Source: a virus. From it: DNA of 64,000 nt. The translations under genes and the position numbers were made by a program. Within the stretch, counting starts at the first letter, position 1; the number at the start of each line of letters is the position of its first letter. Below, piece by piece: positions 59,920 through 60,647 of this stretch. The stretch is from IMG/VR virus record IMGVR_UViG_3300045988_016718; one strand, 5' to 3'. The notes below the pieces were generated by a model. It was not told where the DNA came from. It saw only the letters and a list, made by a program, of their open reading frames with translations, and ran no database searches.

Positions 59920-60091
59920 TCATAAATTCAATAAATAGGAAGAGTATTCCTACCCATGAGAACCAGCAAGTCATAATGCCAAACAGTAAGTCACCAACTG
60001 AAAAGTTCCATCTTTTGTGCTTCCATAGCATAGCCATATAAATAGGATAAATTATTGCTCCTATTATATATACAACTAGTATTGCTGTCAT
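59882..60091 (-). CDS. small membrane protein (2 TM helices)
   Basis: 69-aa ORF, hydrophobic. Confidence 0.5.
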   Translation of the reverse strand: MTAILVVYIIGAIIYPIYMAMLWKHKRWNFSVGDLLFGIMTCWFSWVGILFLFIEFMSDKTLFRFHDKG

Positions 60092-60552
60092 ACCTTATGA
60101 ATTAATGTAGTTATACCAATAGGTGCAATCTCTGTCCATTCAGTAATATTGTTACTGTCTTGAGGTTTACCATCTCCAAATGTACATATAGTAATATGTG
60201 GAGTTGTATTAGCACATAAAGGAGTGAATCTTAATTCTCCTGTTCTCATTGAGCCAATTTGAGGCATACTCACTCTGAAAGCTAATGCCTTGTCATTCAT
60301 TCCAATAGCATTAACTATCAATGTATATGCTTTTGTTCCATGTTGAGTTGCCTTGGTGTATAGCCTGTCCAATAACTTCTTGAGGTCAGCATGGTCTTTC
60401 TCCTGACTCACATGTAACAATGTACAGTGGTCTAAGTATTCCTTTGTTGACCTTAGAAATGCAACTTGATAAGGAGAGTCTTCAACATATCTCCTTAGTT
60501 TGTCCCTACTACCTTTAGTAAGGAACAAGCCATAATACTGATATTCATCCAT
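60088..60552 (-). CDS. 2H phosphoesterase superfamily protein (LigT/CPDase-like or Acb1-like)
   Basis: Two HxT/Sx motifs at the expected spacing in a 154-aa protein: DHCTLLHV (nt 60409-60432) and PHITICTF (nt 60178-60201). Confidence 0.65.
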   Translation of the reverse strand: MDEYQYYGLFLTKGSRDKLRRYVEDSPYQVAFLRSTKEYLDHCTLLHVSQEKDHADLKKLLDRLYTKATQHGTKAYTLIVNAIGMNDKALAFRVSMPQIGSMRTGELRFTPLCANTTPHITICTFGDGKPQDSNNITEWTEIAPIGITTLIHKV

Positions 60553-60575
60553 ATGATTATATATTAATTGATTAG

Positions 60576-60647
60576 TACTCCCAACTGGACTCGAACCAGT
60601 ATTTACTCTTTAGGAGAGAGTCAGTCTATCCCTTGACTTATGAGAGC
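60576..60647 (-). tRNA. tRNA-Arg(CCU)
   Basis: Hand fold in minus sense: GCTCTCA-TA-AGTC-AAGGGATA-GACT-G-ACTCT-CTCCTAA-AGAGT-AAAT-ACTGG-TTCGAGT-CCAGT-TGGGAGT-A. It is uninterrupted, and the acceptor stem has two G-U pairs. Confidence 0.8.

Follow-up and report, generated by a model that had tools for sequence, protein, structure and literature searches.

Enzymes of the 2H phosphoesterase superfamily are widespread in larger phages, where they probably clear 2′,3′-cyclic phosphate (>P) ends for RNA repair, leaving a 2′-phosphate (PMC7824862, PMC9503650). The RNA-repair cassettes of phages contain the "Swiss Army Knife" proteins 2H-SAK and HAD_SAK (Iyer et al. 2021, PMC7824862). Acb1 (gp57B of phage T4; also present in Erwinia phage FBB1) is a metal-independent phage 2H enzyme of ~150 aa with HxT/S motifs; its role has been demonstrated, and the protein has a U-shaped pocket and a C-terminal lid (PMC9117128). 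Other described systems include (i) the cyclic phosphodiesterase (CPD) domain of Trl1, which forms the C-terminal part of a ligase-kinase-CPD polypeptide, (ii) the catalytic domain of vertebrate CNPase (2xmi, 4wdf), which comprises ~210 aa with extra elements, and (iii) ThpR/LigT of E. coli (PF02834, PF13563), a stand-alone bacterial RNA 2′,3′-cyclic phosphodiesterase (CPDase) of the 2H superfamily. The 2H phosphoesterases of phage RNA-repair cassettes were reportedly treated by Burroughs and Aravind in 2016, and we know of no phage 2H enzyme other than Acb1 with a demonstrated role. Here we describe a 2H phosphoesterase encoded beside a tRNA-Arg gene in a 64,000-nt stretch of the IMG/VR record IMGVR_UViG_3300045988_016718 (this entire stretch is referred to below as the window), which represents a crAss-like phage (Crassvirales, Steigviridae-like). 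The two genes are:

60088..60552, minus strand: open reading frame (ORF) of the 2H phosphoesterase, 154 aa, translation starting with MDEYQYYGLFL

60575..60647, minus strand: tRNA-Arg (anticodon CCU), identified with ARAGORN (anticodon given as CCT)

The first of these genes encodes a minimal, stand-alone member of the Trl1-CPD/CNPase branch of 2H phosphoesterases. This protein contains two histidine motifs, HCTL (residues 42-45, with H42) and HITI (residues 119-122, with H119), from which the original prediction had assigned it to the 2H enzymes; the motifs, the Pfam results and the predicted fold agree on this assignment. In a Pfam scan, the CPD domain of fungal tRNA ligases (PF08302) was matched with an E-value of 1.7e-8 (34.7 bits; gathering cut-off of 23), and the same family matches all 38 of the 38 aligned relatives at E ≤ 0.01 (best value 1.7e-10). 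The LigT family (PF02834) scored 14.6 bits (E 0.039), which is under its cut-off of 23.3, and nothing else was matched at E ≤ 1. In the AlphaFold2 model, built with an alignment (pLDDT 89.5, pTM 0.84), both HxT motifs are located on beta strands (E42-47 and E119-124). The best match of this model in the PDB, found with Foldseek, is the kinase-CPD portion of Candida albicans Trl1 (6u05; E 3.9e-4), which is followed by ~45 entries for CNPase catalytic domains (TMq up to 0.62; Foldseek probability 1.0 for the Trl1-CPD and CNPase structures alike), with the rotavirus VP3 2′-5′ phosphodiesterase only at rank 49. Among viral predicted structures (BFVD), the top matches are multidomain giant-virus proteins of ~740-770 aa (E 7e-5 to 6e-4) from CroV, a marseillevirus (a protein named "RNA ligase") and Homavirus. 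HMMER searches of the PDB sequences, performed with the query protein or with the family profile, returned chance matches only. The proposed likeness to the CPD module of Trl1-type tRNA ligases is thus borne out by the above-threshold match to PF08302 and by 6u05 as the best structural match, while membership of the LigT family was rejected on the score of PF02834.

As in the CPD domain of Trl1, the two HxT motifs of the phage protein lie on adjacent strands, and its predicted chemistry, by analogy, is the opening of RNA 2′,3′>P to 2′-P/3′-OH. It differs from that domain (i) in being a separate protein, (ii) in sequence, since its identity to solved structures is ~14%, and (iii) in its setting, a phage genome with no detected RNA ligase or Tpt1. 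The catalytic domain of CNPase belongs to the same 2H sub-branch by fold (TMq 0.5-0.62, probability 1.0) and would be expected to have the same regiochemistry, but it lacks HMMER-detectable sequence similarity to the phage protein and comes from an unrelated biological setting. ThpR/LigT shares with it the stand-alone form and the superfamily, but is absent from the best structural matches. The proteins described here add one more family to a well-known type of phage enzyme, with catalysis predicted from the sequence and the structural model; the result is a sound annotation and no surprise.

A word-indexed search yielded 139 homologues of the protein, nearly all of 130-160 aa and many of them encoded on contigs of ~100 kb, and when 1.84 billion cluster representatives were searched exhaustively with HMMER, 167 clusters (counted at 50% identity) were matched at E ≤ 1e-3. 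Conservation was assessed in an alignment of 38 sequences that are 39-89% identical to the query. The invariant residues are D41, H42, C43, T44, L45, H47, N115, P118, H119, I122 and T124, together with G128, K129, P130, S133, N134, I136 and W139, while conservation reaches 90% or more at I120, T121 and C123. The invariance of these residues gives the family its consensus signatures, DHCTLLH and PHITICTF..GKP.(D/E)SN.I. Both histidine motifs, which were originally taken to define the 2H fold, are therefore no chance pattern.

The family is essentially confined to phages. In a set of 185,579 prokaryotic species, each represented by a single genome, it was matched 5 times, in every case on contigs of metagenome-assembled genomes, two of which (140 and 153 kb) have a length that would fit mis-binned phages. 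The named records are chiefly gut Bacteroidota phages, and homologues occur in the cultured crAss-like phages PhiCrAssBcn (host B. intestinalis) and Kolpuevirus (B. cellulosilyticus). Database records label the homologues "hypothetical", except that UniRef calls one of them "tRNA ligase phosphodiesterase domain-containing". Comparison of the protein with PADLOC, NCBIfam and PHROGs gave nothing meaningful, and no paper retrieved in a literature search mentions PF08302 in phages or the crAss-like 2H gene. The homologue of the Lak megaphages sits on a very long branch of the 2H tree; in Lak-B5 (L083, 6001-6411) it is interrupted by a stop codon of translation table 11, and the ORF was called only from position 6106. 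Lak phages use an alternative genetic code, with which the interrupted ORF is consistent.

In the window, the ORF translation, ARAGORN and Rfam agree on the originally noted pair, a 2H ORF with HCTL and HITI beside tRNA-Arg(CCU). The Rfam tRNA model (RF00005) places the tRNA at 60576-60647 (58 bits, E 1.2e-10). Its gene has no encoded CCA, and its discriminator base is situated 22-23 nt upstream of the ATG of the 2H gene (60552) on the same strand; we infer that the two genes are co-transcribed.

Comparable arrangements were sought by running ARAGORN on all fetched loci and placing the results on a tree of the 2H proteins inferred by maximum likelihood. In the crAss-like clades the nearby tRNA gene, where found, is usually tRNA-Arg with the anticodon CCU or UCU, on the same strand, mostly upstream and within ~1.5 kb (150-1400 nt upstream in crAss-like relatives). 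A clade of contigs of ~95-280 kb (most of 150-195 kb) has tRNA-Met 23-30 nt upstream of the 2H gene in some members and ~210 nt upstream in others, tRNA-Leu(UAG) usually ~0.4-1 kb downstream, and 7-17 tRNA genes within 5 kb. In locus L063, tRNA-Ala precedes the 2H gene by 20 nt, and in L087 and L085 the gene also lies beside or inside tRNA clusters. Roughly half of the ~10 lineages (a small number) have a tRNA-linked 2H gene; this linkage exceeds the few per cent of the genome that tRNA clusters occupy, with the caveat that such clusters tend to fall in accessory regions.

Many of the crAss-like loci also contain odd tRNA-like genes, detected by ARAGORN, whose position ahead of tRNA-Arg and the 2H gene is conserved. 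They lie 1.3-3.6 kb upstream of the latter (loci L001, L004, L008, L011, L013, L015, L020, L021, L062, L073 and L084) and have A34 anticodons (Tyr-ATA, Ile-AAT, His-ATG, Phe-AAA, Asn-ATT) or 4-base readings (taat, caat, ccaa). These genes may represent degenerate or frameshift-suppressor-like tRNAs, or additional tRNA-shaped RNAs.

Distant members of the family have gene contexts that include enzymes of RNA repair. P0223 (357 aa) consists of an N-terminal HAD_SAK_1 phosphatase domain and a C-terminal 2H domain; the latter can be aligned with the query (31% identity) from YYG..LT through to the C-terminus and keeps both histidine motifs as well as the block DGKPQ.S..ITEWT. Its gene, carried by a terminase-bearing contig, overlaps the end of a gene for a nucleotidyltransferase of the PolyA_pol/CCA-adding type. 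The gene of P0208 is located 3-5 kb from genes for a 228-aa RNA ligase (PF09414) and for an HD+KTI12/AAA_33 protein resembling polynucleotide kinase (PNK). In G004, one of five related phage records (G001-G005), a CCA-adding-type gene lies directly beside a full Pnkp gene (AAA_33 + HAD_PNKP). The family resembles the 2H proteins of RNA-repair cassettes in being phage-encoded, in having a member that is joined to HAD_SAK_1 and encoded beside a CCA-adding enzyme, and in its predicted clearing of >P; it differs in that no repair enzyme is fused to the query or encoded next to it, and in that the query matches PF08302, not the 2H-SAK family.

A different neighbourhood was observed in L103, whose distant 2H member (9294-10004) adjoins a DNA methylase gene and lies 3 kb from a gene of the Sequestin/Tad2-like type (anti-Thoeris sponge family). 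It looks like a counter-defence island context.

The window also encodes a potential partner of the 2H enzyme:

26251..26700, minus strand: kinase-only homologue of the 5′-kinase domain of T4 Pnkp (PF13671, AAA_33; 5.3e-16)

Over its full length, this protein shows ~27% identity to kinase domains of T4-type pseT, its relatives are labelled polynucleotide kinase, and the homologues in G004 and G005 (56% identical) additionally carry a HAD_PNKP phosphatase domain; its earlier description as a phosphatase-less Pnk is correct. The gene is part of the replication (middle) module, with ThyX on one side and DUF1599/PolA on the other, 34 kb from the 2H gene. Both genes occur in most PhiCrAssBcn phages, Kolpuevirus, the Lak phages, G004 and G005. 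The kinase was found with no 2H match in crAss001, cr126_1, Kehishuvirus "tikkala", PhiCrAssBcn17 and PhiCrAssBcn20, and the 2H gene with no close kinase homologue in G003 and DAC19-22. Their co-occurrence is suggestive and phylogenetically shallow.

Two further ORFs with domain matches were recorded. The first, beside the kinase gene (25510-25947, minus strand; 145 aa), encodes an N-terminal HicA-toxin-like domain (PF07927, 1.8e-7), i.e. an mRNA-interferase-type fold inside the replication module. The second, between PolA and dUTPase (29946-30455, minus strand; 169 aa), matches Asp_protease_2 (5.2e-7) and RVP (2e-5), retroviral-type aspartyl proteases.

As noted originally, no ligase was recognised in the window: a scan of ~35 of its ORFs revealed no ligase domain. 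Families RtcB and Tpt1/KptA were not detected in G001-G005, and neither was PF09414 in the crAss-like G001-G003. Rnl1 (PF09511) was also not matched in G001-G005, but the controls gave no match either, which makes this a weak negative. The originally proposed search for an Rnl- or RtcB-type ligase in the rest of the genome thus gave no match in the relatives G001-G003, with the same limit for Rnl1. In G004 (192 kb) and G005 (282 kb), PF09414 matches 399-aa proteins (L091, 590-1789, and L093, 538-1737, respectively), which score far better as PF01068 (2.5e-21) and have an OB domain; PF09414 alone would miscall these DNA ligases as RNA ligases. In the control genome, B. thetaiotaomicron, RtcB, TROVE and a CCA-adding enzyme are present. 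A complete eukaryote-like pathway of kinase, CPDase and ligase, of which the original prediction named the two healing activities, is not upheld: the kinase gene is distant, the two genes occur separately and no sealing enzyme was found in the crAss-like genomes and window ORFs scanned. A complete Trl1-like pathway was rejected, since RtcB, an Rnl2-type ligase and Tpt1 were not found in the crAss-like relatives.

Downstream of the 2H gene, on the same strand, is the following gene:

56076..57485, minus strand: Ro60-like TROVE-vWA protein (PF05731, 4.5e-13; phrog_850, 4.5e-35)

The distance between the two, previously put at about 3 kb, measures 2.6 kb. The TROVE region of the window has ~75% nucleotide identity to that of PhiCrAssBcn/Kehishuvirus phages, and the order (tRNA-Arg)-...-2H-DUF1360-(x)-TROVE was found in 16 of the crAss-like loci fetched. 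In some crAss-like contigs no TROVE lies within 10 kb of the 2H gene, the complete record G003 lacks TROVE altogether, and the 2H gene also occurs without it in the 150-280 kb clade and in Lak; conversely, no 2H match was obtained in crAss001 or in the nearest related record, G001 (86% complete), both of which carry TROVE. A strict functional link between the 2H enzyme and Ro60 was rejected, as 2H genes occur without TROVE, and TROVE in records with no 2H match. The TROVE-containing operon of crAss001 is already transcribed in the first 10 minutes after infection (PMC8375218), and because of the synteny with this operon the 2H gene is probably expressed early as well.

Beyond the TROVE gene there are two tRNA-like genes with inserted hairpin modules (55676-55823 and 55276-55410). 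Removal of the insert from the former leaves a perfect Lys(UUU) anticodon arm, and the latter keeps a Thr(UGU) arm. The hairpin-module motif shared by both is also found outside tRNA-like contexts within the same intergenic kilobase, for which reason we rejected the idea of intron-bearing tRNAs that need CPD, kinase and ligase for splicing. The two genes more likely specify tRNA-shaped Y RNAs, and since this interpretation fits the distribution of the shared motif, tRNA splicing is not invoked as the task of the CPDase. Downstream of this Ro60/Y-RNA island lies a gene (52411-53202, minus strand) for a 263-aa SPFH/Band 7 protein (PF01145, 4.4e-18), which is 57-84% identical in crAss-like relatives.

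It is moderately probable that the 2H protein acts as an early phage RNA/tRNA 2′,3′-cyclic phosphodiesterase. The enzyme would be produced early, from the same transcript as tRNA-Arg(CCU), and H42 and H119 would serve as its general acid and base. It would open the 2′,3′-cyclic phosphates that metal-independent host RNases leave on tRNA (or other RNA), and by analogy with Trl1-CPD, CNPase and ThpR the products would be a 2′-phosphate and a free 3′-OH. This reaction may constitute the first healing step of tRNA repair. In distant members the succeeding steps would fall either to a HAD phosphatase and a CCA-adding enzyme, which would rebuild the 3′ end without a ligase, or to an RNA ligase and an HD-PNK protein; in the phage of the window they might be supplied by the kinase-only PNK and/or by host enzymes. 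No full healing-and-sealing set is encoded, and the 2′-P/3′-OH end would be unsuited to RtcB; candidates for the step that follows the CPDase are (i) phosphatase action and CCA rebuilding (as in the P0223 cassette), (ii) an unrecognised ligase, (iii) decay and (iv) signal quenching.

Several observations weigh against this interpretation. The match to PF08302 spans only positions 122-218 of the 250 positions of the model. RNA ligase, RtcB, Tpt1 and CCA enzyme were not found in the near-complete, 2H-bearing crAss-like records G002 and G003, and the PF09414 proteins of G004 and G005 had to be rejected as RNA ligases, being ATP-dependent DNA ligases. The predicted 2′-phosphate/3′-OH end is no substrate for RtcB, the enzyme that B. 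thetaiotaomicron carries. Some homologues are located in counter-defence or NAD/ADP-ribose contexts (Tad2-like, NADAR). No tRNA gene was found within 6-10 kb of the 2H gene in the Lak megaphages, DAC19-22, L027/L059/L061, L060 and L065-L072, and the neighbours in the lineages without tRNA genes (SprT-like, TnpB-like, DUF5758, HNH, AAA) are uninformative. Finally, the significance originally ascribed to the tRNA gene is upheld only insofar as the adjacency recurs in relatives; it cannot separate a CPDase from Acb1, because only 1.4 kb separate gene 57B of T4 (L090; NC_000866, 73952-74410) from the tRNA cluster of that phage, and tRNA adjacency was accordingly rejected as an argument against Acb1.

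It is unlikely, though it survives best among the alternatives, that the protein is a cyclic phosphodiesterase of small molecules. CNPase catalytic domains are its second-best structural match, the gene of one homologue is flanked by those for an NAD-dependent DNA ligase and NADAR, that of another lies near NAPRTase, and crAss-like genomes with no phage sealing enzyme fit a ligase-free role. However, a 2′-nucleoside monophosphate is a metabolic dead end in the absence of a further phosphatase, none of which was identified nearby; Tpt1, the source of Appr>p, was not found in phages G001-G005, and the embedding in tRNA clusters and the HAD fusion beside the CCA enzyme point to RNA ends.

The second alternative, which we judge to be distinctly improbable, is a functional analogue of Acb1 that destroys a cyclic oligonucleotide or related immune signal (cyclic oligonucleotide-based antiphage signaling system [CBASS], type III CRISPR or others), cleaving a 3′-5′ or 2′-5′ bond via a cyclic-phosphate intermediate. 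The protein resembles Acb1 in size and in being a small stand-alone phage 2H enzyme, and it is encoded in a variable, probably early accessory region; its gene is patchily distributed even among close relatives (not detected in G001 or crAss001), one homologue lies near the Tad2-like sponge gene, and Acb1 of T4 is likewise encoded near tRNA genes. At the superfamily level, the 2H protein does share its fold with Acb1, a model of which ranks 14th in the BFVD search, but it is not a member of the Acb1 family. The Acb1 family of the Pfam library (PF23474; 144 positions, cut-off 27 bits) recognised the positive control, T4 gp57B from NC_000866, at 2.7e-60, whereas it was not matched by the 2H protein at E ≤ 1 or found in the five related phage records at E ≤ 0.1. 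Alignment of the family profile with T4 Acb1 in hhalign reached a probability of 1.4%, over 15 columns around the second HxT motif only. The structural match is also weak (E 0.04, TMq 0.45), compared with 7e-5 to 6e-4 for the best viral matches; the 50 best PDB matches include no entry named as Acb1, and the fusion and neighbourhood links of the distant members point to enzymes repairing tRNA ends. On the results of the Pfam scan, its positive control, hhalign and the scan of the five records, membership of the Acb1 family was rejected, and the originally proposed Acb1-like anti-CBASS nuclease fails every sequence test. The RefSeq record of T4 labels gene 57B, the proven anti-CBASS Acb1, "RNA ligase".

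The third alternative is an enzyme linked to Ro60/RtcB that converts >P ends to 2′-phosphates in order to block them or to quench a signal. It would remove the >P tRNA fragments that activate host sensors of the RtcR type or leave ends that host RtcB cannot use, and it might work together with the Ro60/Y-RNA particle that the phage encodes downstream. In many Steigviridae the 2H gene shares its strand and a presumed early operon with the TROVE and Y-RNA-like genes, B. thetaiotaomicron encodes both RtcB and a TROVE protein, and the lack of a phage ligase would be explained. In Salmonella, rsr and the Y RNAs share an operon with rtcBA, and cyclic-phosphate-ended tRNA fragments activate RtcR. The idea of >P ends as signals has been raised before (PMC7824862). 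This purely inferential scheme is nevertheless very unlikely, as 2H genes occur without TROVE and TROVE without a 2H match in the genomes listed above, and distant members associate with repair, not anti-repair, enzymes.

With little confidence, we also consider that tRNA-Arg, the 2H CPDase, the small ORFs, DUF1360, Ro60 and the tRNA-shaped Y RNAs might together form one phage RNA-damage module. If so, it would correspond to the rsr-Y RNA-rtcBA operon of bacteria, a Trl1-type CPDase taking the place of RtcA/RtcB. The CPDase would then reprocess, in a ligase-free manner, the >P ends of cleaved tRNAs or of tRNA-like Y RNAs, feeding CCA re-addition or decay, or it would blind the host sensors of >P-ended tRNA fragments.

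The immediate surroundings of the 2H gene contain further small genes and a repeat. The first of these is:

59882..60091, minus strand: small hydrophobic ORF, 69 aa, whose ATG overlaps the stop codon of the 2H gene (ATGA)

The overlap suggests translational coupling, judged from the nucleotide sequence. This ORF is kept solely in the nearest relative (L003, 69% identity), and family searches with it gave no match. An exact 15-nt tandem repeat, CTTAAAACCATTAAA, is located upstream of tRNA-Arg (60680-60711, plus-strand coordinates) and has 2 exact copies in the window; allowing ≤3 mismatches, 10 matches were found, which is within chance (shuffle mean 5.8; 7 of 100 shuffles reach 10). A scan for sigma-70-type promoters and terminators gave results at background level. 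The 2H gene is flanked in the window by ORFs for 232 aa (60734-61432, minus strand) and 67 aa (59716-59919, minus strand), and homologues of both (30-50% identity) also flank it in an unrelated clade of 150-190 kb phages (L018-L056). Because of this recurrence, a small accessory gene set appears to move between very different Bacteroidota phages.

It is widely predicted that the 2H phosphoesterases of phages heal tRNA ends cleaved by host defences, although to our knowledge almost none apart from Acb1 has been assayed. The relatives in cultured crAss-like phages make the family described here open to genetic testing. Knowledge of what a ligase-less CPDase does in a crAss-like phage would clarify how RNA-targeting immunity is dealt with by the most abundant phages of the human gut, and it would also show whether this enzyme cooperates with the Ro60/Y-RNA system.

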